Part shown: in pieces, positions 3,884 to 64,000 of the stretch
Layout: every line of letters begins with the position of its first letter
Numbering within the stretch: position 1 is the first letter of the stretch
Source: a virus
Virus record (IMG/VR): IMGVR_UViG_3300029858_000005
Reading direction: 5' to 3' (one strand)
DNA: 64,000 nt
The notes under the pieces: model-generated
The model's input: the letters and a program-made list of their open reading frames with translations, nothing else
Database searches by the model: none
Told to the model about the DNA's origin: nothing
Program-made: the position numbers and the translations under genes

Positions 3884-4279
3884 ATGGACAAAGACAAAAT
3901 TATCGTCAGTGTAGTAATTGACAAGCAGGCTCTTGTTGACAGAGCATTCGACATCTCGAAGAATCCTTCTGAGTTCAATGAAATCAAGAAGGTTATCGAC
4001 GGCAAAAACCAGTTTACTCGTGATATCGACGAGATTGATGATGAAGGCAAGAAGGAGAATAATACGAACCTTTTCGCCGGCATCGCATTGGACGTCATCC
4101 TCTGTGACAACCAGGAACTGGGAATCACCAAGCGTTTAAACGCGCTTGAGGACAAGAAGAACTCTTTCCTCGCTAAGATGAAAAAGCTCGACGAACTCCA
4201 GAAAAAAGTGAAAAACGGAGAGGTGCATGGCGTTGAAGGTTTCCGTGAGTTGTTGAAAATAATGGAGGAGGACGTGTAA
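3884..4279 (+). CDS. hypothetical protein (acidic, coiled-coil C-terminus)
   Basis: 131-aa ORF whose stop overlaps the next start (ATGA-type junction). Confidence 0.6.
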   Translation: MDKDKIIVSVVIDKQALVDRAFDISKNPSEFNEIKKVIDGKNQFTRDIDEIDDEGKKENNTNLFAGIALDVILCDNQELGITKRLNALEDKKNSFLAKMKKLDELQKKVKNGEVHGVEGFRELLKIMEEDV

Positions 4280-4488
4280 TGGGTGTAGTATCAAAGTACG
4301 GAAACCTGTATGATGTAAAGAAGAACATCATCTGCCACGCTCCTGTCACTTCTTCACATTTCGAAAGTATTTTGAAGAAGGGCAATGTACTTCCAATGAT
4401 GAATGGCGTAACAACACCAGAATTGTTCGGAATTCACGCGGACAAGAAATTTAAGCGTGGACGCTGGCGCCGAGTATTAACACATTAA
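4279..4488 (+). CDS. hypothetical protein
   Basis: 69-aa ORF, translationally coupled to the upstream gene. Confidence 0.5.
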   Translation: MGVVSKYGNLYDVKKNIICHAPVTSSHFESILKKGNVLPMMNGVTTPELFGIHADKKFKRGRWRRVLTH

Positions 4489-4499
4489 TTCATATAACA

Positions 4500-4949
4500 A
4501 TGGCAAAAGAAAAAGCAAACATTTCGGCAACACTAGGTCACGAGTACGAGGACCTGGAGGAGCGTGAGGATTTCCTCGCCAACAACGCTGACTCCGTTGA
4601 GAAGATGGAGTTCATCAAGCGATTCAATTCTGATGAGCTGATGAAAAAGAAGGACCTGTTCGCCCTTCAGTCTGCACGTGCATCTGACATCGAGGAGGAA
4701 ATCAAGGATTTCCGTGAGCAGAAAAAGGCAGAGTTGAAGCCTATCAAGGAAGAGATTTCTTCTCTCCTTAAGGAAATCAAGCAGAAGGGTAGCATGGTTA
4801 ACGAGAAGGTTTACAAGTTTGTTGACCGTGAAGCAAAGATGACTGCCTTCTATGACAAGGAGGGTAATCTTGTTTCTTCCCGTCCGGCAACACGTGACGA
4901 ACTCCCTAGCAATGTATACTCAATTAACCGTGATCAGCAGGCTATGTAG
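4500..4949 (+). CDS. hypothetical acidic coiled-coil protein
   Basis: 149-aa ORF with protein-like composition and no competing ORF. Confidence 0.65.
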   Translation: MAKEKANISATLGHEYEDLEEREDFLANNADSVEKMEFIKRFNSDELMKKKDLFALQSARASDIEEEIKDFREQKKAELKPIKEEISSLLKEIKQKGSMVNEKVYKFVDREAKMTAFYDKEGNLVSSRPATRDELPSNVYSINRDQQAM

Positions 4950-4991
4950 TCTGCTTTCACATAGTTTCTAAATTCTAAAATATTTTGTAAA

Positions 4992-5738
4992 ATGAACAAT
5001 GAAAAATTGCAGATAGACCTCGCTCCTGGACAGGATCATGCGGAGATTGTTCTCCGTGAGGTAGGTAACGAGAACCCTTATAAGCTTCCTGCAAAGGAGC
5101 CTCTTAATCTTCAGGTAGACGGTGTTATTACCTGTATCTATGCCTTCCTTGAGAAGCGTTGGGGTACAGAGCAGATTGACAAAGAGCATACGCATATCCT
5201 GGTTAATCGAGAGAAGCTCGTTGTTACTCTTGTTACAAACGAGAATGATGAGCGCACTACACAGACAATCATCGGCTCTATTCAGCTGTCTCGTCAGTTT
5301 ACGGGATTCCATATCAATGACGGTCAGTTGTGGAAACCGGTACAGCTTGGTGACTTCTTCCGACTCAACCGTTCTTTCTTTGAGACGAAGGAGAAGAACA
5401 TGGAACTCGTCAATCTCCTCAAGAGCTTCTCGGCGAAGGTTCAGACAACAATCAAGAAGGAATACAGCGACAATGGTTCCGTGACTGACAACTATGAGAA
5501 GGCTGTAGACTCTAACCTTCCTCCATCGTTCACTATCAATATTCCTATTTTCAAGGGCGCAGAGCCTGAGAAGCTTTCAATCGAGACTATCGCTCACGTC
5601 GAAGGCAACATGGCATTACTGACGCTTATCTCTGCTGATGCAGAATGTATCATCGAAGAATCCCGCGACAAGATCATCAATACGGAGCTTGACAAGATTC
5701 GTAAGCTCTGTCCTGAGATTCCTATTATGGAAGTGTAA
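4992..5738 (+). CDS. hypothetical protein
   Basis: 248-aa ORF whose stop overlaps the next start. Confidence 0.7.
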   Translation: MNNEKLQIDLAPGQDHAEIVLREVGNENPYKLPAKEPLNLQVDGVITCIYAFLEKRWGTEQIDKEHTHILVNREKLVVTLVTNENDERTTQTIIGSIQLSRQFTGFHINDGQLWKPVQLGDFFRLNRSFFETKEKNMELVNLLKSFSAKVQTTIKKEYSDNGSVTDNYEKAVDSNLPPSFTINIPIFKGAEPEKLSIETIAHVEGNMALLTLISADAECIIEESRDKIINTELDKIRKLCPEIPIMEV

Positions 5739-6001
5739 TGACAGAAATAGATAACAGAATAGCAAAAATGCCCGCCAAGGTGGCCTTTGCTGTACTTGAC
5801 TTGCGTAAGGCGCATGCGTGCATCATGGAACTTCCACGAAGCAAGTCGGTACAGCTGGCCAGAAAGGCGGCATACCTCAACTACATTGAAGGTGAGGGTA
5901 GAAAACTCGGTAAGGTTCCACTTCATTATGAACGCCTTAATGAAAAGGGTGAAAGCGTGACGGTGGAAACTTACTTCAGATATTTAGATAGAGTTCATTA
6001 A
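5738..6001 (+). CDS. hypothetical protein
   Basis: 87-aa ORF, coupled to the upstream gene. Confidence 0.55.
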   Translation: MTEIDNRIAKMPAKVAFAVLDLRKAHACIMELPRSKSVQLARKAAYLNYIEGEGRKLGKVPLHYERLNEKGESVTVETYFRYLDRVH

Positions 6002-6018
6002 TTTCAAAATCTATACAA

Positions 6019-6903
6019 ATGGATATAGAGCAGTTAAACAAAACGCCTCATAATCAGATTTGCGATTTGGCAAGAGACAGATTCATCGAGGTGTACAATC
6101 AGAAGTTCGGAGAGGGTGGAGACGTATTCTTTGAAGAGCAGAAGGCGTTCTTCAACGAAGAACTTCTCAATGGTCCGTTCAAAGGCTATCTTGAAAAGGC
6201 TCCATCACTGAATATTCATGATGCCTTCATGAACCTGGCAATTAACGGATTGTCTCTCGAAAAGGGAACTACGACACTCTGCTACCTCATGGGCTACAGC
6301 AACTACGACAAGAATACCCGACAAACGAATTATACGGCCAAGATTACCTATACAGGATATGGAGAAATCCTTCTTCGCCAGCGAGCCGGTCAGATTGTTC
6401 GTTGTGACAATCCTGTCGTAGTTTACAATTGTGACGATTTTCGTTTCGGTGAACGAGACGGTCATAAGTACGTTGATTACGCAAAGACTTATCCTCGACC
6501 TGAAAATTCATACATCGTTGCTTGTTACGTGAAGATTATTCTTCCGAACAATGCCTACGATTACTTCGTTCTTGACCGCGAAGGTATCGACCGTCTCCGT
6601 ACGTATTCGGAGAAGTTCGGAGGTAAAGACCACAAAGCCAATGCTCTTTACGGCGGAAACTATGTCGGGAACGATGGTAGAACGTATTTCAGAGATATCG
6701 ACACAGGCTTCCTTATCTCGAAGACATGCAAGCATGCGTTCAAGGGCTATCCTAAACTGAAGGTTGGTCTGGGCGCTCTTTTGCAGGCCGATATCGACAT
6801 GCAGACTCAGCAGAAACCGACTCAGGAAGCCTTTGGCGCCGGAGATACCGCACCGGAAGACAAAGGCGTCAAGGTAAAGGTTGACAGTGATTCACCATTT
6901 TAA
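6019..6903 (+). CDS. RecT-like single-strand annealing protein
   Basis: AFMNLAINGLSLEKG..CYLMGY...ITYTGYGEILLRQRAGQIV...VVVYNCDDFRF...YVACYVKI follows the RecT family pattern. It is followed by a PD-(D/E)xK nuclease gene. Confidence 0.6.
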   Translation: MDIEQLNKTPHNQICDLARDRFIEVYNQKFGEGGDVFFEEQKAFFNEELLNGPFKGYLEKAPSLNIHDAFMNLAINGLSLEKGTTTLCYLMGYSNYDKNTRQTNYTAKITYTGYGEILLRQRAGQIVRCDNPVVVYNCDDFRFGERDGHKYVDYAKTYPRPENSYIVACYVKIILPNNAYDYFVLDREGIDRLRTYSEKFGGKDHKANALYGGNYVGNDGRTYFRDIDTGFLISKTCKHAFKGYPKLKVGLGALLQADIDMQTQQKPTQEAFGAGDTAPEDKGVKVKVDSDSPF

Positions 6904-6914
6904 AATTGTTATAT

Positions 6915-8384
6915 ATGGCAGAAAATACAGAATTGCAGTTGGTACAACAACAAGCCAACAATATTACAAGACAGATTGCAACGCTAAAATCTGATACGGA
7001 AAATGCGGTGCAAGCCAACAGGAAATCTTATGAGGCATGCGTGAATGCAGGTGAGTCTCTGTTGTTTGATATTGGCGTTTCCGGAATGAACGATGCTCTT
7101 GACGAGAGAGCCGCTGAGTTTATCAAGAAAGCTAAACTGACAGAGAAAGCAATGACGGAGAAACGTAAGGGTGTTACCCAAGTGTTCGATATTGTCCGTA
7201 AGGGTTTTACTATGATGGAGAACCTTATCTCTATCAAGAACACCGATTCTGTTGTCTATAAGATTCAGGAGAAACGCAACGAGTATGCGGCATACAAACT
7301 TGAACAGCAGCGTAAGGCTGAGCAGGAACGCCTGCGCCAGGAGCGCATCAAGGAGGCCAAGATCAAGTTGAAGACTGATACAATTGATATCTTGAACAAT
7401 CTTCTTACAGAGCATTCTTCTGCTGCTATCAACTCGCTTAATAATACGTTCTCTCTTCTCACCCTTGATAACAAGGATGAAGTTAAGAAACGTATTACAG
7501 AGTGTTCTGATGTTCTTGACCTCGGACATCTTTTCGTTAATAACAAGCCTTCATACTCTTCCGAAATTGATGAGAATGATGCCAAGGAGATTATGAATGG
7601 AGCCTACAAGGAGGTTTCCGCTTCTCTTCTTGCATCTTATAAGCAGACCGTAAATGCTACGCGTGATGAGCTTCTTATGAAGTTTGATTCTAAGATTGCT
7701 GAACTTCTTGAAATCAAGAAGGCTGAGGAAGAGCGCAAGCGTAAGGAAGAGGAAGCTCGCAAGGCTGAAGAGGAGCGTAAGCGCAAAGAGGAGGAAGCAC
7801 GTAAGGCTGCTGAGGAAGAGCGCAAGAAGCAGGAGGAGATTCAGCGTATCAAGGACGAGGAGGAGCGCAAGCGCAAGGAGGCAGAGCGGAAAGTTGCCGA
7901 GGCTGAACGCAAGGCAAAGGAAGCCGAGCTGAAGGCTGCTGAGGAAGAGTGCAAACGTAAGGAAGCAGAAGCTGCCGCTGCTGAGGCTGAACGCAAGGCA
8001 AAGGAAGAGGCTATCCGTAAGGCTGATGAAGCCGCCAAGGAAGAGCAGCAGAGAAAGCTTGCTGCTGAGCAGGAGAAGCGTGATGCAGAGAATGCAGCCC
8101 AGCACGCTACTGCACAGGCTCAGTCGCTCTTTGCCCAGACTTCCGTTGGAGAAACCGGTAAGCAGAAGATCAAGGTAACAAAACGCCTTGTTGTTACCGA
8201 CAAGAATGCCTGGCTCGACATCATCCAGCAGTGGTGGACGATTGAAGGCTCCAAGATGTCTCCAGACAAGCTTGCTTCCAGATTGGAGTTCATGCGCAAG
8301 GCGTGTGAGAAACACGCAAACAGCGAAGAAGAGTATATCGTTTCTCCTTATATTAGATATGAGGATGAGGTAACGGCTAAGTAA
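6915..8384 (+). CDS. coiled-coil protein with tandem E/K/R-rich repeats
   Basis: The long ORF 6906..8384 has its first ATG at 6915 (MAENTEL). The central segment reads KAEEERKRKEEEARKAEEERKRKEEEARKAAEEERKKQEE. Confidence 0.7.
   Translation: MAENTELQLVQQQANNITRQIATLKSDTENAVQANRKSYEACVNAGESLLFDIGVSGMNDALDERAAEFIKKAKLTEKAMTEKRKGVTQVFDIVRKGFTMMENLISIKNTDSVVYKIQEKRNEYAAYKLEQQRKAEQERLRQERIKEAKIKLKTDTIDILNNLLTEHSSAAINSLNNTFSLLTLDNKDEVKKRITECSDVLDLGHLFVNNKPSYSSEIDENDAKEIMNGAYKEVSASLLASYKQTVNATRDELLMKFDSKIAELLEIKKAEEERKRKEEEARKAEEERKRKEEEARKAAEEERKKQEEIQRIKDEEERKRKEAERKVAEAERKAKEAELKAAEEECKRKEAEAAAAEAERKAKEEAIRKADEAAKEEQQRKLAAEQEKRDAENAAQHATAQAQSLFAQTSVGETGKQKIKVTKRLVVTDKNAWLDIIQQWWTIEGSKMSPDKLASRLEFMRKACEKHANSEEEYIVSPYIRYEDEVTAK
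7717..8040 (+). repeat. in-frame tandem coding repeat (GAGGAAGAGCGCAAGCGTAAGGAAGAGGAAGCTCGCAAGGCT-like units)
   Basis: Repeated AAGGCTGA(A/G)GA(A/G)GAGCG(C/T)AAGCG(T/C)AA(G/A)GA(A/G)GAGGAAGC units are visible in the DNA, along with the corresponding (E/K/R/A) peptide repeat. Confidence 0.6.
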
Positions 8385-8385
8385 T

Positions 8386-9066
8386 ATGGCGGAACAACCG
8401 TTTGACCCTTATTATTCTCGTGGTGAGGTCTCCAATTCGGACCTCACTGCGTTGAAATTTGCCCTGAACCCGCAGCTCAACTTCGTAAAGGAAGAGGATA
8501 AGAGAAAGGCTTTCCATCTCGGAACTCTTGTTGACGCTCTCGTTACCGAACCGGAAAAGTGTAATCATTACGCCATGACGGTCGATGACGAGAAATATAC
8601 GGAGAAGGATTGGAAATGGGGGCTAGATCGGCTTGCTGTTCTGAAGAAACAGGCAACAAAGGATAGGTTCCTTGATTTCGTCCTGAAGAATGCGGTCGGT
8701 CAGAAAACATTCATCAATCCGCACATGAAGATGGAATACCAGGGCTTCGAGTTCGAGCTTCCGGTACGCTGCAAGTTCGACTGGTGGCTCGGCGAGTTCG
8801 GAGGTGATTTGAAGACCACCGCAGCTACGTCACAAGAACAATTTGAAGCTCAGATTGATTTCGTGGACTGGGATAGAAGCCGTGCATGGTATATGGACCT
8901 TACGCACAGTATAGACCCAAGATACGGAAACATGGACTTTATCTTTGCGGTCTCCAAGACCAAGAAGAAAGTATTCTATAAGAAGATTGAACGTGGTGAC
9001 GAGTTGTATTTGCGTGGTAGGGAGAAGGCTCTTGAATGGGCTTTCCGCATGTGGTGTTTATTATAA
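8386..9066 (+). CDS. PD-(D/E)xK-family nuclease (likely exonuclease partner of RecT)
   Basis: HLGTLVDALV...CKFDWWLGEFGGDLKTT is a D...(D/E)xK-like core. It sits directly downstream in the recombination module. Confidence 0.55.
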   Translation: MAEQPFDPYYSRGEVSNSDLTALKFALNPQLNFVKEEDKRKAFHLGTLVDALVTEPEKCNHYAMTVDDEKYTEKDWKWGLDRLAVLKKQATKDRFLDFVLKNAVGQKTFINPHMKMEYQGFEFELPVRCKFDWWLGEFGGDLKTTAATSQEQFEAQIDFVDWDRSRAWYMDLTHSIDPRYGNMDFIFAVSKTKKKVFYKKIERGDELYLRGREKALEWAFRMWCLL

Positions 9067-9075
9067 TTTATTATT

Positions 9076-10476
9076 ATGTCAGATAAACCGGAATTATACG
9101 ATTATCAAGAAGAAGGTGTGCGCATGGAGCTTGCCATGAAGCGCTGTATCAATGGCGATGACATGGGAACCGGTAAGACGGTTCAGTCTATCGTCGCCAT
9201 TGAACGTGCAAAGGCAACTCCTTGCCTTGTTGTTTGCCCTGCTGCACTTAAGGTTAATTGGGAACGAGAGATAAAGAAGTTTACGAACCTCCGGCCTCTC
9301 ATTCTTACCGATTCCGTCAATGCGACATACGGATACCATCTTACTAAGATGAACCTGTATGATGTAGTGATATGCAATTACGAGTCGCTTGCAAAATACT
9401 TCGTCGTAAGCCTCGGTCCGAAACCGTTACGGCTGAAAAACTTCCTGTTTCGTGATGAACTGAAGATTATCAAGTCTGTGATTATCGACGAGTCCGCAAG
9501 AGTCAAGGATCCGTCCACAAGGCAGTCTAAAATCATCATGGGATTGTGCCAGGGTAAGGAGTATATCTATGAGCTTACAGGTACGCCCGTTGTAAATCAC
9601 GCAACAGACCTGGCCTGCCAGCTTGCTATCCTCGGTCGCCTGAACGACGAGTTCGGAGGTTTTGGTGAGTTCTGCAACAGGTACGGTGAGAACGAGAATC
9701 TTGAAGAGCTTAACCGGAAGATACACGAAACGTGCTACTTCCGCAGAGAAAAGAAAGATGTTCTTAAGGATTTGCCGGATCTGACCAGAACGACCATCAG
9801 TGTCGCCCTCGACCCTGAAACGCAGGAAGAGTACGATACCTGTCAGAAAGACCTGCTCACGTTCCTTCTCGAATACAAGAGCTGCTCCGAGGAAGAGGCT
9901 AGGAAAAAGCTTAGAATGAAGGCTCTTGTCAGGTTTATGAACCTTCGCTCGATATCTGGGCGAGGGAAGATGAAGGCGACTATAGAGTTTCTCCATGATA
10001 CCGAAGAACAGATAATCGTATTTGCCGAGCATCGTGATGTCGTTAGTGCAATCAAGAAAGAGTTCCCGGATGAGGTTTGCACCGTAACCGGTTCCGATAG
10101 CCAGCAGCAGAAGCAGTGGGCTATCGATTCTTTTCAGGCTAGGAAAAAGAGAATCATCATCTGCTCCATCAAAGCAGCAGGCGTAGGCCTTACGCTTACG
10201 GCTTCTTCCAATGTTGTGTTCGTCGAGCTCCCATGGACGATGGCAGACTTGTCGCAGTGTGAATGCCGTGCCTATCGTAACGGTCAGAAGAATGCGGTTA
10301 CATCGTGGATTCTCATGGGTGCAAATACCATCGACGGCTATCTTTATAGCTTGATTATGCAGAAAGGCTCAATAGCATCAAAGGTTACAGGCGAACAGGA
10401 CTCCGCTATCAAGGATGCAGCCTACTTTGATGAGTTGGCAGATTTGGTTTTACAAAATTCTTTAAATAAAAAATAA
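9076..10476 (+). CDS. SNF2-family (DEAD/H-like) helicase
   Basis: Motif I GDDMGTGKT, motif II IIDESARVKD, and a helicase-C region with SIKAAGVGLTLT...QCECRAYRNGQ. Confidence 0.85.
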   Translation: MSDKPELYDYQEEGVRMELAMKRCINGDDMGTGKTVQSIVAIERAKATPCLVVCPAALKVNWEREIKKFTNLRPLILTDSVNATYGYHLTKMNLYDVVICNYESLAKYFVVSLGPKPLRLKNFLFRDELKIIKSVIIDESARVKDPSTRQSKIIMGLCQGKEYIYELTGTPVVNHATDLACQLAILGRLNDEFGGFGEFCNRYGENENLEELNRKIHETCYFRREKKDVLKDLPDLTRTTISVALDPETQEEYDTCQKDLLTFLLEYKSCSEEEARKKLRMKALVRFMNLRSISGRGKMKATIEFLHDTEEQIIVFAEHRDVVSAIKKEFPDEVCTVTGSDSQQQKQWAIDSFQARKKRIIICSIKAAGVGLTLTASSNVVFVELPWTMADLSQCECRAYRNGQKNAVTSWILMGANTIDGYLYSLIMQKGSIASKVTGEQDSAIKDAAYFDELADLVLQNSLNKK

Positions 10477-12390: not shown

Positions 12391-12495
12391 ATGGCAGAGG
12401 AATGGCTCAGTGAGCACCCTGATGCGACAAAGAAAGAAATATGGATGGCCGGTTATTGGCAATCTACCGATAACTGGTGCAACCGAACCAAGTAA
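12391..12495 (+). CDS. possible 34-aa ORF
   Basis: ATG at 12391 and stop at 12493-12495 (MAEEWLSEHPDATKKEIWMAGYWQSTDNWCNRTK). It fills the gap between neighbouring genes. Confidence 0.3.
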   Translation: MAEEWLSEHPDATKKEIWMAGYWQSTDNWCNRTK

Positions 12496-12506
12496 ATTTT
12501 AGAATT

Positions 12507-12794
12507 ATGACACAGAAAGAACGTATTGATAACGCTACCACAAAGCAAGCGGTAGTGTTCATTTGTATCTACTCCTGGGTTATTGTGAGAAACCTAGGAA
12601 GAGCAATAAACAAGGCAGTTCACAAGCTGCCCTGGTTGTTCATCGTGATAACGGTAGTAATATCATTCATTGTTAGCTTCGTTCTTATCTCTAAGGCAAG
12701 GGCAGAGCGAGATAACTACAATCAAAAACTAGTTCACGCAACGCAGCAGCTTGATAGCTATATGGCTGCATACGGAAACATTAAATCAAAGTAA
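12507..12794 (+). CDS. small membrane protein
   Basis: Internal ATG of ORF 12477..12794, preceded by the AACCAAGTAAATTTTAGAATT-ATG start motif also used in the 61.5-64 kb array. One clear TM segment (LPWLFIVITVVISFIVSFVLI). Confidence 0.6.
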   Translation: MTQKERIDNATTKQAVVFICIYSWVIVRNLGRAINKAVHKLPWLFIVITVVISFIVSFVLISKARAERDNYNQKLVHATQQLDSYMAAYGNIKSK

Positions 12795-14472: not shown

Positions 14473-14703
14473 ATGAATGGATTATTATCAATGATTGGTA
14501 TGCAAACTGAATTGGAATATCAAATGAGTGATTTTCCTTTTGGTTCTCCACGTATTAGATTTAATGTACCGAAAGGTAAAATTCCATCCGACAAACAGAA
14601 GTGTCAGCCAAAGGCGCAGCATGAGTTCACCATCAAAGGTGTTAAGATCATGGCAGCTTCTAAGAAGGATGCTATCAAAAAGTATAATCATCGTAAAAAG
14701 TAA
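14473..14703 (+). CDS. hypothetical basic protein
   Basis: First ATG of ORF 14458..14703. It ends in the AAAAAGTAAAGCGTATG junction element. Confidence 0.45.
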   Translation: MNGLLSMIGMQTELEYQMSDFPFGSPRIRFNVPKGKIPSDKQKCQPKAQHEFTIKGVKIMAASKKDAIKKYNHRKK

Positions 14704-14708
14704 AGCGT

Positions 14709-14984
14709 ATGGAATTAATTATCAAACCTTTTCATTCATTACCTTGTCGTTTGGAGGTGTTTACAATTAATGGAAAGGGTGCAGACCAAGACGACTTTGG
14801 AGACATGCATGACCATGATGCTGAAAGCGCAGAGCCTTATGCGTGCGCAGATATGCACTTTGACCCAAAGCCTCCAACAAAGGAAGTGTTAGATGAATAC
14901 AATTTAACAGAAGGAGAATATTATAACATCTGCAACGAATTGGAATGCAAACTATGCGTAGGTAGTTGCGGATGGTGTGTTTAA
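14709..14984 (+). CDS. hypothetical acidic Cys-containing protein
   Basis: 91-aa ORF whose start lies inside the junction element. Confidence 0.5.
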   Translation: MELIIKPFHSLPCRLEVFTINGKGADQDDFGDMHDHDAESAEPYACADMHFDPKPPTKEVLDEYNLTEGEYYNICNELECKLCVGSCGWCV

Positions 14985-15008
14985 CTATTTATCCAAAAAG
15001 TAAAGCGT

Positions 15009-15161
15009 ATGTATTTTGAATATAGAATCGTAAAGATTGAGAAGGGTCTTTTTCTCATCGAGTATAAGACCGCTCCTTATGGAGTTTGGCATGAAGTAAA
15101 AAACAAACAGTTCAAGACTAAGCCAAAGGCAGAAGCTTGGGCTAGAAAGAACTTAGTTTAA
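15009..15161 (+). CDS. possible 50-aa ORF
   Basis: The ATG lies inside the second copy of AAAAAGTAAAGCGTATG (MYFEYRIVKIEKGLFLIEYKTAPYGVWHEVKNKQFKTKPKAEAWARKNLV). It is too short for the ORF track. Confidence 0.4.
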   Translation: MYFEYRIVKIEKGLFLIEYKTAPYGVWHEVKNKQFKTKPKAEAWARKNLV

Positions 15162-15174
15162 TGAAGTAAAGCGT

Positions 15175-15405
15175 ATGGAATATGAAGATTATAAAAGAGC
15201 AAAACAGTTGCAAGAAGAAACACTCCCAGCTTTTGAAAGATTAAAAGAAGCTGTTTCTGTTGGCACGCTTGACAAGAAAGCAATAAAAGAAATTGGAGAT
15301 TCTTTTGCAAACGCTATGTTTTATGAAAATGATTTTGCAGATTCTCTTGAAGAATTTATTGATGGGTGGGCTGTAAAATTTAAAGAGGAATTTAATAAAT
15401 TGTAG
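15175..15405 (+). CDS. hypothetical protein
   Basis: 76-aa ORF whose start lies inside the third copy of the junction element. Confidence 0.5.
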   Translation: MEYEDYKRAKQLQEETLPAFERLKEAVSVGTLDKKAIKEIGDSFANAMFYENDFADSLEEFIDGWAVKFKEEFNKL

Positions 15406-16906: not shown

Positions 16907-18148
16907 ATGGAGAAACGAATAATTTTAGACGAACAAGATATGAATGAGTTTACAAAGATTTTCGCAAAGACAATAGAAGATGAAGCTATCAAACAGATAG
17001 AAACCCTATCTAATAGCGAGGCTTACAATAGTTGTAAAATAAGAATAATGCCAGATTGCCATGCAGGTAAAGGATGCACTATTGGCACGGTAATAGAGCT
17101 TGATAACAGAGTAGTTCCTAACACTGTTGGAGTAGATATAGGCTGCGGCATGAAAGTCGTAAGACTTGGTAAAGTTGATATTGACTTGCAGAAATTTGAT
17201 GAAGCAGTCAATAAGTTGATTCCGTCTGGTTTTAATGTCAACGAGGGAGAAGTATCAGCCTACATAAACGGATTGGTTGATGGTTGTATGTTTGGCAAAT
17301 TCCGTGCTTGGGATTGTCTTGACAGCATGGAAATAGTATATCGTTCTGTTGGAAGTCTTGGCGGTGGCAATCACTTTATTGAGTTAGATGCAAATGAAGA
17401 AGGAGAGAAGTTTCTTGTGATACATACAGGAAGTAGAAACCTTGGTGTTAGGGTATGCAACTATTACCAAAAACTTGCCTACGAGTATTGTCGTAAGAAA
17501 ATAGCTGATAAGTCTGAGGTTATTGCCAAGTTGAAAAGCGAAGGAAGAGAAAAGGAAATACAGAGTGTTATCAAGTTGTTAGGTACTAGAACCATTAGCA
17601 AGGAACTTTCTTACTTGGAAGGTGATTTGCTCAATGACTACCTCAATGATATGCGCATAGTTCAAAAATATGCTGAACAAAACAGAATGATTATCGCCAA
17701 CAGACTTGTAAATGCTTTAGGTGTAGATATTGATGCTAATTCAGATAAGTATTCTTTTACAACCATTCACAACTATATAGATACAGACAAGGGTATATTG
17801 CGAAAGGGAGCTATCAGTGCAAAAAAGGATGAGGTAGTCATTATCCCAATGAATATGCGTGATGGTTCTCTTATCTGCAAGGGAAAAGGTAACAAAGATT
17901 GGCTATGCTCTGCCCCTCATGGCGCGGGTAGATTAATGTCTCGTACACAGGCAAAGAAAGAGTTATCTATGGATTTTTACAAGAATGAAATGAATGGTAT
18001 TTATTCCACATCAGTTTGTGAAGAAACCATTGATGAAGCACCTATGGCATACAAGCCAACCGAAGAGATTGTTGAGTTAATCAAACCTACGGTTGATGTC
18101 ATTGATGTCATTAAGCCAATTTACAACTTTAAAGCAAAATCATTATGA
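16907..18148 (+). CDS. rtcB: RtcB-family RNA 3'-phosphate/5'-OH ligase
   Basis: All hallmark motifs are present: MPDCHAGKGCTIGT, VGVDIGCGM, GGGNHFIE, HTGSRNLG, TIHNY and SAPHGAGR. Confidence 0.9.
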   Translation: MEKRIILDEQDMNEFTKIFAKTIEDEAIKQIETLSNSEAYNSCKIRIMPDCHAGKGCTIGTVIELDNRVVPNTVGVDIGCGMKVVRLGKVDIDLQKFDEAVNKLIPSGFNVNEGEVSAYINGLVDGCMFGKFRAWDCLDSMEIVYRSVGSLGGGNHFIELDANEEGEKFLVIHTGSRNLGVRVCNYYQKLAYEYCRKKIADKSEVIAKLKSEGREKEIQSVIKLLGTRTISKELSYLEGDLLNDYLNDMRIVQKYAEQNRMIIANRLVNALGVDIDANSDKYSFTTIHNYIDTDKGILRKGAISAKKDEVVIIPMNMRDGSLICKGKGNKDWLCSAPHGAGRLMSRTQAKKELSMDFYKNEMNGIYSTSVCEETIDEAPMAYKPTEEIVELIKPTVDVIDVIKPIYNFKAKSL

Positions 18149-59274: not shown

Positions 59275-59401
59275 TTATGTACAATAATAATATTAATTTT
59301 CCGTTATTGTGTAGGATAAACCCCGATAAATAGGGGCTTTCTGAAGGATAACACGTGTCAGGTCGTCCTTATAACATGTCGTCTATAAAATATCGACAAT
59401 A

Positions 59402-59409
59402 CAAAGATA
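59402..59409 (-). promoter_or_regulatory. Bacteroidota-type -7 box TATCTTTG (minus strand) upstream of the primase gene
   Basis: Plus-strand CAAAGATA lies about 130 nt upstream of the start at 59274. Confidence 0.35.
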
Positions 59410-59659
59410 CAGATAATATCCTGAATATCCGGTAAAACCCTAGTAAATAAAGGGTATAAATATACATTTTAGGTATACATTAAATGAAGGATAGGTATAC
59501 ATTTATGGTTTGGTCTGCAAAGTAAGAGTTTATGCTATCAAATGTTAATAAATAACGGATGAATGAATATGCATAATTATCCTTTATGGTAGGAGGTAAT
59601 TAAACTTTACAAAAAGGCTGAAAAATCGGAAGAAAAAATTTTTAGATGAGGTGACTACC

Positions 59660-59980
59660 GCGCTGGTTTATAGCTGCAAAGGGGGTGTGGGGGTGTTTCT
59701 TCTGAAATTATTACATTTTGTGTCGGTTTATATAGTGTAAACGGGCGTGAAACAATATTTTTGTAATTATTTTAAATTGTCGGTTTATATTTATAAAAAA
59801 TTTATGTAACCCCTTAATAACCAACACTTTATAATTTTGTTTATATTCATTTTCTTGCATACTTATTCATTATCAATAAAGCGTGGAACACAAAAACTTA
59901 TTATAATACACTTGACCGAAAAAATGTTACATAATAACGTACTGGTTAAATGTTAAAATATTAACATTTAGTGTTTATAT
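59660..59980. repeat. iteron-like direct repeats (T)GT(C)GGTTTATAT; candidate replication origin
   Basis: GGTTTATA occurs at 59665, 59725 and 59782, and GTTTATA at 59839 and 59973 (spacings 60, 57, 57 and 134 nt). The region is AT-rich and lies between the divergent primase gene and the 60196 gene. Confidence 0.5.
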
Positions 59981-60102
59981 AGTTAGATATATAGAAGTAA
60001 AACGTAATATATTAAGACTTTGCCACAAAGTGTTAAAACCCATAACAACCTATATATCAATACGTTACAACGTCTTTAAAGGTCGATTTTTAACATAAAA
60101 AA

Positions 60103-60134
60103 TTTGCTTTTATCAATAAATTTTCGTACCTTTG
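60103..60134 (+). promoter_or_regulatory. complete Bacteroidota sigma-A-type promoter (-33 TTTG, 20-nt spacer, -7 TACCTTTG)
   Basis: TTTG at 60103-60106 and TACCTTTG at 60127-60134, about 60 nt upstream of the ATG at 60196. Confidence 0.6.
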
Positions 60135-60195
60135 TAGTACAAAAAGAAAGAGATAGGACACTATCTTATAAGTAACATTTAAACAATTTAGGTAT

Positions 60196-60717
60196 ATGAA
60201 AGAATTATCTGTAAAAGGTGCTCAAGGTTACGAGCACGCAAGTGCTAAGGTTGCTAGTTATGTAACCGAGTGCAAAGGTAGCGCAGTATTAGCGCAGAGT
60301 TTAGAAGTGCTCAATAGTTACCGCAAAAAGTTATTGAGTGAGTGCGCCGATAGTGAAGTAGTAAGCGCAAAGAAAGAGTTAGAAGTAGCTAGGGAACGCT
60401 ATAACAAACTAGCTACAAAGTATGTGCTTTCAGATGAAAGCTACTGCAATTTGCAAACCGAGTGCGTACGTAGCGCAGTTAGCGAGTTTTCACGCAAACA
60501 TAAACTGCCTAATTTCTTTGCGTGGTTTGATAGCAACGGCAAAGACAAACAAACTACTATAATAGATAGTTTGCAGCGTCTTGGTTCTAAATTGTGTTCT
60601 TTGCATCAATCATTTGCAAGTGGTGCAAAGGTAGCAAGGAAGAAGAGTGAAAGCATAACAGACCTACAAAAACAGATAGCAGAATTGCAGGCAAAGTTAG
60701 CAGCAGCGCAAAAGTAA
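60196..60717 (+). CDS. hypothetical coiled-coil protein
   Basis: 173-aa ORF behind a good promoter, followed by a terminator. Confidence 0.65.
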   Translation: MKELSVKGAQGYEHASAKVASYVTECKGSAVLAQSLEVLNSYRKKLLSECADSEVVSAKKELEVARERYNKLATKYVLSDESYCNLQTECVRSAVSEFSRKHKLPNFFAWFDSNGKDKQTTIIDSLQRLGSKLCSLHQSFASGAKVARKKSESITDLQKQIAELQAKLAAAQK

Positions 60718-60728
60718 CACAAACAAGG

Positions 60729-60758
60729 TAGCTAGAGAAATCTAGCTATCTAGTTTTT
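60729..60758 (+). terminator. intrinsic terminator with GAAA tetraloop
   Basis: TAGCTAGA-GAAA-TCTAGCTA (8 bp) followed by TCTAGTTTTT. A second 7-bp hairpin lies at 60763-60784. Confidence 0.65.
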
Positions 60759-60784
60759 CCTACTGGCTATCTAGTGGTAGCCAG

Positions 60785-61452
60785 TGGGATATTTCCACCG
60801 TGCGAATTACGTGCGGTGCGGGTCGTCGTACCCTTATTTTTCCTATCACGTTTAGGCGTACATTTGCAGGTCGGTGCTGCATAAGGGAACAAAACAGAGA
60901 TTTTGGTGTTATTCCAGAGAGAGAGAATTTATTCTCCCTCAGGGGATTTATTATCAAAATTTCAGAGAGCTATCCGGCAAACGAATCTGTAGTGATACAG
61001 AAAGGCGGGCGAGAAATCCCGTCGAGGGTAGCGAGAGAGCACAGAGCCACCACGATACCGAATGAGATGAGGCACGTGGAAAGAGTAAGAGCCGTAGCTG
61101 TGCAGTTGTCTAGCGAGATAACGGACGGATAAATCATAATTCATATTCTATCCCGTTGGCTGCGGGTTTAGGGATACGAGATATCCTGAAAAGCTGCGTG
61201 TTGGATGGCACGTGGAGTGGTTGCCGTTGCAGGGATTTTCCTGCACATCATATTCGCTCATAGTTTTTAAAGTGTGGGCTAGCGAATATAAAACGCACTT
61301 TCTGAAATCGGTTGCTTGTCATCCGTGCGAGATTTATCTCCTCAGAAATAAACAAGCTGCTGGCAGAAGCATAAAATCTGTAGGGTGTGAGCCACGTAGT
61401 TAAGACGATAAAGATAAAACGTGGTGCAAAGATGCACATCCTGGCTAACGGG
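60785..61452 (+). ncRNA. candidate structured non-coding RNA(s) or long structured 5' leader (family unknown)
   Basis: There is no credible ORF in ~670 nt. G+C is visibly higher than in the flanks. At least 10 stems are visible, several with G-U pairs that work only on the + strand. A TAcaTTTG -7-like box lies at 60859-60866. Confidence 0.4.
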
Positions 61453-61501
61453 GCGGGGAGAAATCTCCGCTCTACAATTACAAACCATTTATATTAGAAT
61501 T

Positions 61502-61627
61502 ATGAAACAGAGAATCAAGGAATTTTGCGATAAGTACATGTGGTTTATCTTGCCTGCTTGCAGCGTTCTAGCTATAATGCTGGGTGTTGTTTTGGAGAAG
61601 CATTTTCCACTGAGTGAAATTCTGTAG
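61502..61627 (+). CDS. 41-aa membrane peptide (cassette 1)
   Basis: ATG preceded by AAACCATTTATATTAGAATT (MKQRIKEFCDKYMWFILPACSVLAIMLGVVLEKHFPLSEIL). It is the in-frame distal part of ORF 61421..61627. Confidence 0.5.
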   Translation: MKQRIKEFCDKYMWFILPACSVLAIMLGVVLEKHFPLSEIL

Positions 61628-61677
61628 CCTAATCTCCCTACGCTTGTAGGGAACGAATAACCAAAAATATTAGAATT

Positions 61678-61812
61678 ATGAGTACGCTGAGAATTAAATG
61701 CCTCGATATGTGCGAGGTTGAGAGTATCATTGCAGATGCTCAGGAGATTTTGAGTCACGTAGAATTCGGGTCGCTAAAGAATGGTGTGCTTACATTATTC
61801 TGCGTGGCGTGA
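61678..61812 (+). CDS. 44-aa ORF (cassette 2)
   Basis: ATG preceded by AACCAAAAATATTAGAATT (MSTLRIKCLDMCEVESIIADAQEILSHVEFGSLKNGVLTLFCVA). Confidence 0.45.
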   Translation: MSTLRIKCLDMCEVESIIADAQEILSHVEFGSLKNGVLTLFCVA

Positions 61813-61830
61813 GCCTAAAAATCCGTAGCC

Positions 61831-62196
61831 AGTACGATAATTGTCGTGCGTGGCTACGGAACAATTACCAATATTTTAGAATTATGAAAGCAAGACAGAT
61901 CATTTATTCAAGTACGATAATTGTGCTTGGATTTATTCAGAGTGCGCCGGCATTCATTTGCTTGGCAAGTACGATAATTCTCCTGAATGTGCTTGGAATT
62001 CTTTACGGAATTCTGCTTGTGTATATTTGGAGCAGTACGAAAAAGGGTAAGTGGTATTTCCGTGAGCTGTGGAGATCCACACTCCGCTTGGAGAATTTCA
62101 TCCTTCCTGGAGTTTAAGAGATTTGGAAAGTACGATAATTGTGCTTGGAAACATTTAGCTAAATTCTGCTTGGAGAAATCCAGGCAGTACGATAAT
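61831..62196 (+). repeat. five copies of AGTACGATAAT(T), plus partial copies AGTACGA at 62034 and AGTACG at 61681
   Basis: Copies start at 61831, 61911, 61968, 62129 and 62186. The 21-nt AGTACGATAATTGTGCTTGGA is identical at 61911 and 62129. Confidence 0.8.
61884..62117 (+). CDS. 77-aa membrane protein (cassette 3) containing two in-frame AGTACGATAATT copies
   Basis: ATG preceded by TTACCAATATTTTAGAATT. It is the in-frame distal part of ORF 61809..62117 and has two TM segments. Confidence 0.5.
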   Translation: MKARQIIYSSTIIVLGFIQSAPAFICLASTIILLNVLGILYGILLVYIWSSTKKGKWYFRELWRSTLRLENFILPGV

Positions 62197-62219
62197 ATAA
62201 CCAATTAAATTACAGAATT

Positions 62220-62417
62220 ATGAAGAAGAATATTTTCGTGGCATTGTTTGCCGTAGTGTGTGTTGCATTGTTTGTAGTATCAATTACTCTGTATAATTGT
62301 CACAGGGCGAACGTGATGCTGAGAAAGACTGTTATCAGCCAGGCTAACGAGATTTTGAAACTAAACGGCTGTCACACAGCAGAGGGAGGTACAACGTTCG
62401 TAGGTCTCAGAAAGTAG
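62220..62417 (+). CDS. 65-aa membrane-anchored protein (cassette 4)
   Basis: ATG preceded by AACCAATTAAATTACAGAATT. N-terminal TM FVALFAVVCVALFVVSITL. Confidence 0.55.
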   Translation: MKKNIFVALFAVVCVALFVVSITLYNCHRANVMLRKTVISQANEILKLNGCHTAEGGTTFVGLRK

Positions 62418-62480
62418 CCAAAAAATGTGCTCAGGCATTTTCCTGGGCATACTATGTAAAACCATTAAACAAATTGAATT

Positions 62481-62657
62481 ATGTTAGACAGAAAATCACA
62501 GAAGAATTTTGAGCGTGCGCTTATGCATGAGATGGAGAAGATCAAGATTGCAGCGCGCCAGTGGCATAGCAACAATACTAAGGGCTACAGAGATTATCGT
62601 AGCAAGAAAACTATCTCCAAGAGTTTCTCTGAGATTGCGGTATTGTGCATGAGCTAA
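62481..62657 (+). CDS. 58-aa basic protein (cassette 5)
   Basis: ATG preceded by AAACCATTAAACAAATTGAATT (MLDRKSQKNFERALMHEMEKIKIAARQW...). Confidence 0.45.
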   Translation: MLDRKSQKNFERALMHEMEKIKIAARQWHSNNTKGYRDYRSKKTISKSFSEIAVLCMS

Positions 62658-62705
62658 ATGTGCGTGACGATTGTCACGCATACTATTCACCAATATTTAA
62701 GAATT

Positions 62706-62996
62706 ATGATAGATGAAGAATACAAGGAGAATGTAGAGTACATACTCTCTACGATTTTGCCTAAGTTGCAGGAAATCCAAAAAAAAGTATTGAAAAATCA
62801 ATCAAGACTGAGCCTTGATGTTAGCGTTAGCAATAAAAACGGCGAAGGGTATATAAGTTGTTTTGCCTGTGTCATGAATGACATGGGAGAAATAACGGAT
62901 ACTTGTTTTCCACGTTTCATCTGCGTATGCAGCAAAGAGGAGATGGACGAGCGGCTCAACGAGCTTAAAGAGTTCATCAAGAAGCACCTAACCTGA
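62706..62996 (+). CDS. 96-aa protein (cassette 6)
   Basis: ATG preceded by TCACCAATATTTAAGAATT. It is the in-frame distal part of ORF 62658..62996. Confidence 0.55.
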   Translation: MIDEEYKENVEYILSTILPKLQEIQKKVLKNQSRLSLDVSVSNKNGEGYISCFACVMNDMGEITDTCFPRFICVCSKEEMDERLNELKEFIKKHLT

Positions 62997-63045
62997 AATT
63001 GAGGGAGTTATTTCTCCCTCTCCTATAAACCAAAAATGTAGAATT

Positions 63046-63315
63046 ATGAGCAAGTGGATTCAGTTTTATCATAAGATTAACAAGTTTGACCTTGTGAACA
63101 TGAGATTTACGGATGATTTCAGTATCGTGGAAATGGTGGGCATGGATTCTGTCATGCCTATCGACGGCAGATTGAGTCTGTCATCCATACGTGATGTAGT
63201 ACAAAAGAAAATCGAGAGCATGAAGAAAATCGAGAGTTTCGACCCTTGTGCGTTCTCCATCCTCACCGGTCCTACTATTCTGTGTGCTTCAGAAAGTCCG
63301 GTGTACAATCTCTAG
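63046..63315 (+). CDS. 89-aa protein (cassette 7)
   Basis: ATG preceded by AAACCAAAAATGTAGAATT. Confidence 0.55.
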   Translation: MSKWIQFYHKINKFDLVNMRFTDDFSIVEMVGMDSVMPIDGRLSLSSIRDVVQKKIESMKKIESFDPCAFSILTGPTILCASESPVYNL

Positions 63316-63327
63316 CCAGAACTGGGC

Positions 63328-63338
63328 AGTACGATAAT
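63328..63338 (+). repeat. sixth copy of AGTACGATAAT, in the loop/arm of an intergenic hairpin
   Basis: GGCAG-TACGATAATGCG-CTGCC between cassettes 7 and 8. Confidence 0.8.
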
Positions 63339-63372
63339 GCGCTGCCTGCTATTAACCAAAACAGAATATATT

Positions 63373-63537
63373 ATGACAGCAGAAGAAAAGACTCAGCTAG
63401 AGAAGCTTGTAGAAAAGTATTTGAAAGAAGATGCGTACAAGCCACGAGGATGGGGAGAGAGAGCCGCAAGGAAGTTTCTCAGCGCATTAAATGGCGAGTG
63501 GCTTCTTACGTACAGCTTTAGACCAGATCCGGCGTAG
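63373..63537 (+). CDS. 54-aa protein (cassette 8)
   Basis: ATG preceded by TTAACCAAAACAGAATATATT, a degenerate copy of the motif. It is the in-frame distal part of ORF 63337..63537. Confidence 0.45.
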   Translation: MTAEEKTQLEKLVEKYLKEDAYKPRGWGERAARKFLSALNGEWLLTYSFRPDPA

Positions 63538-63582
63538 TTATTTGCTACGCCTCCAATTATTAACCAAATCAAAATTAGAATT

Positions 63583-63759
63583 ATGACAGACGGAGACAGA
63601 AAGTTCCTTGCCAGGCTCGTAGCGAGTCACAAGGCAGTTATCAGCGAGGAGTGCAGACGCAAGAATCTCGACAAGAGCGAGTATTTCAGACGCGTAGCGC
63701 GTGCAGACAAGAAGGCTCGGGAGATTGAGCAAGCGTGCATGAGTCCTCGCAAATTCTAG
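63583..63759 (+). CDS. 58-aa protein, possibly ribbon-helix-helix-like (cassette 9)
   Basis: ATG preceded by TTAACCAAATCAAAATTAGAATT (MTDGDRKFLARLVASHKAVISEECRRKNLDKSEYFRRVARADKKAREIEQ...). Confidence 0.45.
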   Translation: MTDGDRKFLARLVASHKAVISEECRRKNLDKSEYFRRVARADKKAREIEQACMSPRKF

Positions 63760-63820
63760 CCAAACATTCTGTGCAGTCTATCTGCACAGAAACCATGTTA
63801 AACCATAAAAATGTAGAATT

Positions 63821-64000
63821 ATGAAGAAAATTGTTAATACATTTACGAAGATTTTCGTACGAGACGGAAAGCGTCACAGAATTGTCGCTGTCGCTTCTTT
63901 AGGTGATGAGTGCAGAAATAACATCTGCACTTTCTCTATTACAGGTCAGATAGATATTTTCTGTTTCGGTTCATGGCACTGCAAAACCTGCGGTTGCATT
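63821..64000 (+). CDS. 5' part of a Cys-rich ORF running off the window (cassette 10)
   Basis: ATG preceded by TAAACCATAAAAATGTAGAATT. The frame is open for 60 codons to the window end. Confidence 0.45.
   Translation, partial: MKKIVNTFTKIFVRDGKRHRIVAVASLGDECRNNICTFSITGQIDIFCFGSWHCKTCGCI

Follow-up and report, generated by a model that had tools for sequence, protein, structure and literature searches.

A hairpin and probable start-site unit bounds the small genes of an accessory array in a Segatella copri prophage

In T4-like phages, promoter-early-stem-loop (PeSL) cassettes combine a stem-loop with a conserved expression signal and bound the small ORFan genes of hyperplastic regions (Arbiol et al. 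2010, PMC2839356; Comeau et al. 2014, PMC4122927). Here we describe an array of small genes bounded in a comparable way, located at positions 61450–64000 (+ strand) of a 64,000-nt stretch of viral DNA, IMG/VR record IMGVR_UViG_3300029858_000005 (the whole stretch is referred to below as the window). The source of the window is a temperate siphovirus-like phage, a prophage of the gut bacterium Segatella copri. Each gene of the array follows a hairpin and a module consisting of an AACCA box, an A-rich spacer and a GAATT box that abuts the start codon. As in the T4 case, the motifs are concentrated in a hyperplastic region, and indels and replacements between close relatives are bounded by them. 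The conserved part of a PeSL is, however, a σ70-type promoter (−35/N17/−10), whereas here it is an ATG-abutting leader; PeSL stems share a family consensus, whereas each stem of the array is unique; and the array is strictly collinear and resides in a temperate siphovirus of a Bacteroidota host. The feature resembles PeSL in architecture, not in mechanism.

Other described systems share individual traits with the array. Start regions of Bacteroidia genes have no Shine-Dalgarno (SD) sequence, are A-rich and G-poor from about −20 and show low structure at the AUG (Baez et al. 2019, PMC6847099), as do the array modules, but such generic sites are weakly conserved, whereas the modules contain invariant AACCA and GAAUU. 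According to ribosome profiling in Flavobacterium, initiation is favoured by A at −3, −6, −12 and −13 and by low structure from −20 to +20 (PMC6847099), and the non-SD start site of Bacteroides is likewise A-rich (PMC6028130, citing Wegmann et al. 2013). The RegA translational operators and RegB sites of T4 (reviewed in PMC3014915) are short motifs at or overlapping the start codon that are common to many early mRNAs of one phage; here the likeness is an analogy only. Integron cassettes with attC sites also combine an open reading frame (ORF) with a 3′ hairpin whose structure is conserved although its sequence varies, lie in one orientation and adjoin a tyrosine recombinase gene, but the array differs from them in having no complementary core sites, a fixed order and a separate start site for each cassette. 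Stable stem-loops without U-tracts are found between cistrons of polycistronic messages at repetitive extragenic palindromic (REP) elements (malE-malF) and at the early RNase III sites of T7; unlike these, the array stems (7–10 bp) are too short for RNase III, are not sequence-repeated as REP elements are, and are coupled to a fixed start module. A full-text literature search retrieved no earlier description of the motif.

Anatomy of the intercistronic unit

Over 300 distinct modules and 68 hairpin families, taken from the window and its relatives, define the anatomy of the unit. From 5′ to 3′, the unit consists of AGCC(W)AAAA with the stop codon in varying register, a hairpin, a linker, AACCA(A), a spacer, (T)AGAATT and the ATG, which is usually followed by A. 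Beside the two boxes of the module, AGCC(W)AAAA is conserved as a third element, placed immediately 5′ of the hairpin; 3′ of the hairpin, the AACCA-side element of the full unit reads aCtAtTAACCAA. Stems are GC-rich and mostly of 7–10 bp, loops are mostly of four bases, and the hairpin sequence is unique to each junction. The linker between hairpin and AACCA is conserved as aCtAtTA, with GTACGATAAT as a recurrent alternative. In all of 326 distinct modules GAATT directly precedes the ATG; ACCA lies 13–19 nt from the ATG, and the spacer between the boxes (8–14 nt) is A-rich and almost free of G. The logo of these modules shows G at no more than 2% from −20 to −9 and A at 100% at −3 and −4, 80% at −6 and 71–78% at −12/−13.

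In the window, AGAATTATG occurs 9 times on the + strand, compared with 1.10 ± 1.01 times in shuffled sequences, and the two-box pattern ACCA-N-GAATTATG was found 10 times on the + strand and once on the − strand. The phage's other gene starts (88, predicted by a simple gene caller that was used only outside the array, since inside it picks antisense ORFs) carry less than 0.5 bit of information per position, and GAATT and AACCA are each present at 1 of the 88. The boxes therefore mark a gene class.

An earlier note on this DNA had listed ten start codons and ten hairpins. All ten ATGs (61502, 61678, 61884, 62220, 62481, 62706, 63046, 63373, 63583 and 63821) start ORFs after a module, that at 63373 being degenerate, as the note had said, and reading AACCAAAACAGAATATATT-ATG. 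The ten hairpins were confirmed, some at slightly different coordinates (the one placed at 62169–62184 was offset and lies at 62166–62187), and the five stop codons with T(A/G)AGCC context were recovered at 61625, 61810, 62415, 63313 and 63757. The gene at 12507 is indeed preceded by the module, and there is a hairpin there too. The units and genes are listed below; triplets of numbers are variable sites by codon position.

61450–61504, + strand: unit 1, the array opener, with no upstream ORF; hairpin 61450–61473, AACCA 61483–61487, AGAATT 61496–61501, ATG 61502
61502–61627, + strand: gene 1, 41-aa peptide, predicted to be membrane-spanning
61625–61680, + strand: unit 2; TAGCC stop 61625, hairpin 61635–61652, AACCA 61659–61663, AGAATT-ATG 61672–61680
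61678–61812, + strand: gene 2, 44 aa; 7/4/13, with 0 internal stops in 10 variants
61810–61886, + strand: unit 3; TGAGCC stop 61810, hairpin 61822–61860 with GTACGATAAT in the upper part of the stem-loop, TACCA 61866–61870, AGAATT-ATG
61884–62117, + strand: gene 3, 77-aa membrane protein, in which AGTACGA(T/A)AAT, encoding Ser-Thr-Ile-Ile, is present three times in frame
62115–62222, + strand: unit 4, with a long 3′ region; stop 62115, repeat copies, hairpin 62166–62187, linker GTACGATAAT 62187–62196, AACCA 62199–62203, CAGAATT-ATG
62220–62417, + strand: gene 4, 65 aa, N-terminal membrane helix; 14/4/28
62415–62483, + strand: unit 5; TAGCCAAAAAA, hairpin 62426–62451 (with G·U pairs), AACCA 62460–62464, TGAATT-ATG
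62481–62657, + strand: gene 5, 58 aa; 7/3/23
62655–62708, + strand: unit 6; AGCTAAA stop, hairpin 62659–62682, CACCA 62688–62692, AAGAATT-ATG
62706–62996, + strand: gene 6, 96 aa; 14/9/24
62994–63048, + strand: unit 7; TGAAATT, hairpin 63001–63020, AACCA 63028–63032, TAGAATT-ATG
63046–63315, + strand: gene 7, 89 aa; 26/20/63 in 29 variants
63313–63375, + strand: unit 8, degenerate; TAGCC stop, hairpin 63324–63347 with GTACGATAAT in the loop, AACCA 63354–63358, ATATT-ATG
63373–63537, + strand: gene 8, 54 aa, in 5 of the 9 arrays compared; 6/7/14
63531–63585, + strand: unit 9; hairpin 63531–63551 (with the stop at 63535 inside it), AACCA 63562–63566, TAGAATT-ATG
63583–63759, + strand: gene 9, 58 aa; 13/22/45 in 49 variants
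63757–63823, + strand: unit 10; TAGCCAAAC, hairpin 63768–63790, AACCA twice (63791 and 63801), TAGAATT-ATG
63821–64000, + strand: gene 10, which runs off the window; 297 aa in relatives L004, L005 and L006
12443–12794, + strand: the sole copy of the unit outside the array; hairpin 12443–12484, AACCA 12486–12490, TAGAATT-ATG at 12507, gene for a 95-aa membrane protein

The ORFs of the array are real coding genes. In natural variants their variable sites are distributed over codon positions as 89/69/210 overall, with 0 internal stops. Gene 3 keeps its frame in an alignment of 6 genomes, in which substitutions are conservative and hydrophobic; the variants of gene 1 were too few for a selection test. 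An identical 89-aa gene 7 protein is indexed in 255 blocks of a public assembly collection. None of the nine complete small proteins matched a family in Pfam or PHROGs, and the protein encoded at 12507 had weak hits only.

The hairpins are + strand RNA structures under selection. In a fixed 50-nt window for each of the 68 families, folding energy was −13.5 kcal/mol compared with −6.8 kcal/mol for shuffled sequences (p = 1e-12). When one fixed window per family was folded for each strand, the + strand RNA was the more stable (−13.5 against −11.9 kcal/mol for the − strand, p = 1e-4), the opposite of what composition predicts. Natural substitutions break 201 hairpin pairs, compared with 386 ± 13 expected in a permutation test, and in relative L007 the hairpin of unit 1 shows a compensatory change of G·U to U-A. 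The hairpin of unit 8 is weak, with a stem of 5–6 bp and a 12-nt loop. The array hairpins do not have the form of intrinsic terminators, in which a U-tract follows a GC-rich stem on the strand that is transcribed: just 2 of the 68 families have a U-rich + strand tail (4 or more T among the first 5 nt past the stem), and 0 of the 10 hairpins in the window, described earlier as generally lacking a T-tract, are terminator-like by the T-tract rule. The phage terminator at 60726–60751 does have a U-tract.

The alternative linker GTACGATAAT is itself repeated. Six exact copies were found at 61832–63338, on the + strand only and within the array only, placed either in hairpin loops or in the linker from hairpin to AACCA; three copies are in frame in ORF 61884–62117, where they adjoin repeated GTGCTTGGA. 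The GTACGATAAT linker is also present in diverged relatives L134 and L143.

Mosaicism and extent of the array

In the nine arrays compared, cassettes are present, absent or replaced, and the comparison of gene content among relatives, which the earlier note had proposed, placed the differences exactly at the hairpin/module junctions. In pairs of genomes that share one neighbour gene but not the other, homology is lost in the module spacer, 5–30 nt upstream of the ATG, in 72% of cases, and most other losses lie directly after the stop codon. Gene 1 is missing from L001, with the deletion joint falling in the module. The hairpin and module of unit 1 are intact in L004, although the upstream leader is replaced there. 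Genomes without gene 8 have another hairpin at the place of unit 8. A hairpin can be exchanged while both flanking genes stay, and more often travels with the upstream gene.

Shuffling, which the earlier note had described for the cassettes of T4-type phages, overstates what is seen here, since cassette order is strictly collinear: among 81 gene families at 90 loci, 1,403 ordered pairs gave 0 conflicts, and there were 0 duplicates. The fixed order fits homologous exchange or deletion at conserved joints and not integron-like insertion or minicircle re-insertion. The phage encodes a RecT-type recombinase.

The unit is kept in L134, whose primase and reverse transcriptase (RT) are only 47% and 69% identical, in diverged L143 and L154, and in contig L113, which has no detectable protein similarity to the phage. 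A syntenic small-gene block of LoVEphage BI-TP1 (L093:39839-42190) contains a cognate form composed of a hairpin, a T-rich tract and CACCCTTTAAA(n)TTTGnnTT-ATG. Conservation of the boxes across diverged lineages indicates that they are under selection. In the viral contig L113, five genes at 4024–10260 are preceded by TTAACC(W)...AACAATTAGAATT-ATG. At the BI-TP1 junctions TTTG lies 4–5 nt before the ATG, one mismatch from a −7 box.

The array makes up the first 2.5 kb, within the window, of a + strand block that is preceded by the divergent primase gene and about 2 kb of non-coding DNA. It extends past position 64000; in relatives, whose arrays were taken from contigs found via exact protein matches and from IMG/VR contigs, it totals 12–19 kb and has a unit before nearly every + strand gene (about 26 of the 29 called array genes in L218). 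Array genes without a strict GAATT show AGATT, AGGAT or GAAAT instead, variants that are also start contexts at the phage's other genes. The last array gene in relatives encodes a + strand tyrosine recombinase and is itself module-bearing.

In most relatives examined, the array includes a full-length UG27-class defence-associated RT followed by about 1.3 kb of non-coding DNA, then two RT-associated genes and then DpnD/PcfM and GP88 family genes. With this defence-type system the array does carry accessory functions; the earlier note had said that such arrays usually hold host-takeover or anti-defence genes. In L001 (14653–19095) the UG27-class RT (E = 1e-227), about 1.3 kb of non-coding DNA, RTas346 and RTas337 follow one another with the array module at each gene, and no Rfam family was found in the gap after the RT; in L218 a truncated RT is joined directly to the next cassette. 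Rfam matches in the window were limited to tRNAs, and the arrays of two relatives gave none.

Besides the array, the window contains genes for a terminase, a portal, a tape-measure protein, a 2,625-aa tail protein, a primase, the RecT-type recombinase, an RtcB ligase and six tRNAs. At 99% identity, the major capsid gene matches a prophage in the S. copri HDD04 chromosome. The nearest cultured relatives, by protein similarity only, are LoVEphage-type Bacteroides phages (terminase protein 57% identical); a megablast search of the array against known phages returned no match. Complete relatives are 85–91 kb long, and the left prophage end adjoins capsule genes in two metagenomic contigs.

Translation start or promoter

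The conserved part of the unit is most likely a translation start region on the mRNA rather than a promoter. The module logo matches both the Flavobacterium determinants (PMC6847099) and the A-rich non-SD site of Bacteroides (PMC6028130). The predicted probability of being unpaired is 0.64 for modules (−22 to +3), 0.52 for the phage's other genes and 0.34 for the hairpin zone. Host promoter boxes were sought in the modules (TTTG and TAnnTTTG of Bacteroides; TAnnTTTCA and AAAnnTTTGG of S. copri) and none were found, so that the modules are without the host −7/−33 elements. If TAGAAT were read as a −10-like element, transcription would start inside the ORF. A scan for σ70-type promoters, a model that is not applicable to this host, gave 17 hits compared with 13.7 expected, i.e., no enrichment. 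A translational site hugging the start codon, to which the earlier note had also pointed, is the best fit to the fixed ATG register and the Bacteroidia start rules.

A self-contained unit that carries standard host signals is located just upstream. At 60103–60764, a TTTG-N20-TACCTTTG promoter precedes ORF 60196–60717 (173 aa, no family match), which is followed by the hairpin at 60726–60751 and then TTTTT. This unit has the appearance of a moron, in contrast to the array units, which have no promoter or terminator consensus and, for the modules equivalent to those of the window, no transcription start site (TSS) in the lysogen.

The latter observation comes from differential RNA sequencing of S. 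copri HDD04 (bioRxiv 10.1101/2024.04.05.588293, Table S1A), in which few TSSs are listed across 844–937 kb, the location of the prophage as placed by the capsid match. No TSS is listed over the positions of the window-equivalent modules (about 910.1–912.6 kb), which are therefore not autonomous promoters in the lysogen. A primary TSS at 929006 (+), seen in all four conditions, lies 21 nt upstream of the ATG of P4D_00837; further TSSs of this stretch are at 912734, 913761 and 930069. The mapping of HDD04 was tested on four gene-spacing relations: gene-to-gene distances agree with the layout of L009 (1,076 against 1,083; 1,670 against 1,676), and two antisense TSSs flank the predicted 181-aa gene. 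Since the distances and the antisense TSSs agree, P4D_00837 corresponds to the module-bearing recombinase that closes the array. In relatives, the sequence upstream of the recombinase is TTTTCG-TATCTTTG-CCACT-A(+1)GTAACCAAAATTATAGAATT-ATG, with a canonical −7 box, five further bases and the start at an A three bases before AACCA. Because this TSS is 3 nt upstream of AACCA, the module is there a 5′ untranslated region (UTR), driven by a separate −7 box. Its length, 21 nt, can be compared with the 5′ UTR mode of 23 nt in B. thetaiotaomicron (PMC7366714). As to the parallel with PeSL drawn in the earlier note, architecture and mosaicism stand, and the promoter part does not, there being no host consensus and the mapped TSS lying upstream of the module.

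Several observations weigh against reading the module as a plain start site. The TSS data describe the lysogen only, and promoter activity dependent on a phage factor in the lytic phase stays compatible with them; the TSS evidence is a single case, reached through coordinate mapping. The invariant sequence (AACCA, GAATT) amounts to about 20 bits, more than a start site needs, and the highly expressed structural genes of the phage do without these boxes. Such excess, class-restricted conservation makes some class-specific, sequence-specific recognition likely. Owing to the A-tract 5′ of the hairpin, 30 of the 68 families resemble terminators of the opposite strand. The hairpin of unit 1 has no upstream gene, so that the hairpin cannot be only a 3′ protector. 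Finally, the GP88 unit follows a canonical T-tract terminator, and read-through or re-initiation is therefore needed there.

A search upstream of the array found no lytic-phase promoter. The candidate considered was a shared TATTTTTC, located about 600 nt before the array, but it probably represents a terminator's T-tract. Base-pairing between the 3′ region of 16S rRNA and AACCA or UAGCC was also considered and set aside; the candidate target falls within helix 45. A tRNA-like substrate of RNase P, formed by hairpin and ACCA, was rejected, as ACCA abuts the stem in only about one third of the families and stems are of 7–10 bp.

Interpretation, flanking features and significance

The explanation that we favour, with moderate confidence, is that the cistrons of the array are bounded by one standard intercistronic unit that acts mainly at the RNA level and serves as start-site leader, hairpin and exchange joint. 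The array would be transcribed in the lytic phase as one long message. AACCA, the G-free A-rich spacer and GAAUU-AUG would form a compact, unstructured leader of about 21 nt, an idealised start site for SD-independent Bacteroidia ribosomes, at which initiation would be improved. The hairpin most probably insulates and stabilises each cistron: it would keep exonucleases out and would stop nearby coding sequence from base-pairing with the accessible start site, and differences among hairpin sequences would prevent the junctions from mispairing or recombining with each other. The flanks of the hairpin (AGCCWAAAA on one side, TAACCA...GAATTATG on the other) mark the limits of homology between related phages, so that genes are gained, lost or replaced as whole expression-ready cassettes with their order kept.

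Were the units true PeSL elements, each module would be a lytic promoter for host RNA polymerase redirected by a phage factor, each hairpin would end the prior transcript, and the array would yield a string of monocistronic, possibly leaderless or short-leader, mRNAs. One unit per gene is what is seen in T4 hyperplastic regions (PMC4122927); the GP88 unit after its terminator and the unit 1 hairpin without a gene before it would find an explanation; the phage family encodes a protein that joins HTH_17, σ70 region 4 and the C-terminal domain of the RNA polymerase α subunit; silence in the lysogen is expected of promoters that depend on a phage factor; and the LoVEphage form of the junction ends in TTTG shortly before the ATG. 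We nevertheless regard such promoters as quite unlikely, given the lack of a −7/−33 consensus, a spacing between the boxes that has a 6-nt range and leaves too little room for two-box recognition, the intragenic start that a −10-like TAGAAT would entail, the hairpins without U-tracts, giant proteins without a phage RNA polymerase (the 2,625-aa and 2,069-aa proteins, considered as candidates, are tail and tape-measure proteins) and a mapped TSS that precedes the module and has its own −7 box. An integron-like system, in which the tyrosine recombinase encoded at the array end would use the variable hairpins, with their conserved flanks, as its recombination sites, is the least probable of the alternatives and would come as a great surprise. 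It would account for promoterless ORFs each with a structured 3′ element of variable sequence and conserved flanks, and for a constitutively expressed recombinase gene closing the array, but the flanks AGCCWAAAA and ACTATTAACCA are not complementary, unlike the R″/R′ cores of attC, the short stems (7–10 bp) are perfect and have no extrahelical bases, no family of the collinear array occurs at two positions or twice in one array, and break points are spread through the module spacer instead of marking a single crossover point.

It is rather unlikely, yet compatible with the start-site reading, that the module is recognised, as an operator or for processing, by a dedicated trans-acting factor (a phage RNA-binding translational repressor or activator, or an endoribonuclease cutting beside the hairpin). 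Such a factor, comparable to RegA or RegB of T4, would act as a common post-transcriptional switch for about 30 accessory genes and would account for the surplus of conservation. The spacer drifts both in sequence and in length, but the AACCA and GAATT boxes do not vary; within the phage, only one gene class has the module, which is conserved across lineages with proteins 40–50% identical; and the HDD04 array has two more 5′ ends, each 41 nt upstream of an ATG, i.e., in the hairpin zone, where structured processed ends may escape exonuclease treatment. These two ends are, however, known by coordinate only, the modules may owe some of their conservation to concerted evolution through recombination with one another, and no candidate factor was found, though no search was aimed at RegA or RegB homologues. 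The RegA consensus is AAAAUUGUUAUGUAA, which is only loosely similar to the array module. That the hairpins serve the − strand, their GC stem and UUUU stopping antisense transcription from the integrase/attR side or from chance −7 boxes, is very unlikely. At least 4 T are present in the first 5 nt after the stem in 30 of the 68 families on the − strand and in 2 on the + strand, AAAA directly 5′ of the stem is conserved, antisense TSSs occur near the right prophage end in HDD04, and two window modules give TAnnTTTG as reverse complement. Against this, the stability asymmetry and the G·U pairs favour + strand RNA, a terminator after each small gene would be far beyond need, and the A-tract belongs to the stop-carrying AGCCWAAAA motif. 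A bolder proposal, which we put forward tentatively, is that the AACCA...GAAUU-AUG leader and the hairpin are the signal of a dedicated trans-acting system (a phage RNA-binding regulator, an endoribonuclease or specialised ribosome recruitment) that would switch about 30 accessory, defence and counter-defence genes together in several Segatella/Prevotella phage lineages.

The region that precedes the array contains the following feature:
60765–61449, + strand: non-coding leader of about 690 nt ahead of the array; no Rfam match

Its part at 60843–61302 is replaced by unrelated sequence in several relatives, and 61302–61449 is conserved at 95–98%; the leader could hold the regulatory region of the array. 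Between the primase gene and ORF 60196, positions 59275–60195 are AT-rich and non-coding, with a direct repeat TAGGTATACATT (59470 and 59492) and several −7-like boxes. The HDD04 TSS at 907834 (+) maps to about 59.3 kb of the window and adjoins TAATTTTC at 59294. This region may be an origin or an operator region.

Further signals were noticed elsewhere in the window and its relatives. At 14473–15405, the junctions of four small + strand genes have the form (A)AGTAAAGC(G)T-ATG, with a TAA stop six bases before the next ATG, a second standard junction. On the − strand, TTT-C(A/G)GGATAAC is located 11–70 nt upstream of structural/late gene starts (49213, 48482, 43993 and 21441); an A/T-rich stretch comes next, and then often RGATT-ATG. 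The motif may be a late-gene signal. At HDD04 position 866896 (about 18.3 kb in the window), a leaderless primary TSS (UTR 0) was listed in all conditions in the otherwise silent prophage. Positions 1280–2855 and 16907–18148 hold a cluster of six tRNA genes and the RtcB RNA ligase gene; only 3 of the 6 tRNAs reach the Rfam threshold, and the calls include the odd Ser(ACT) and Pro(AGG) and one two-base anticodon. The protein with HTH_17, σ70 region 4 and the α C-terminal domain has 303 aa (L009:3575-4486) and an unusual transcription-factor architecture.

For the question of how start sites are chosen without SD in Bacteroidia, the phage offers hundreds of natural variants of an extremely constrained 21-nt leader that show which positions can drift and which cannot, a ready test set. 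The leader is also a candidate strong portable expression part for S. copri, which is hard to engineer. The array indicates that PeSL-like exchange of ORFans can be built on a translational rather than a transcriptional signal, and a different hairpin at each junction amounts to a repeat-avoiding design. Among human-gut prophages this accessory-gene region is very common, and its junction motif therefore provides a simple handle to find and delimit such genes.

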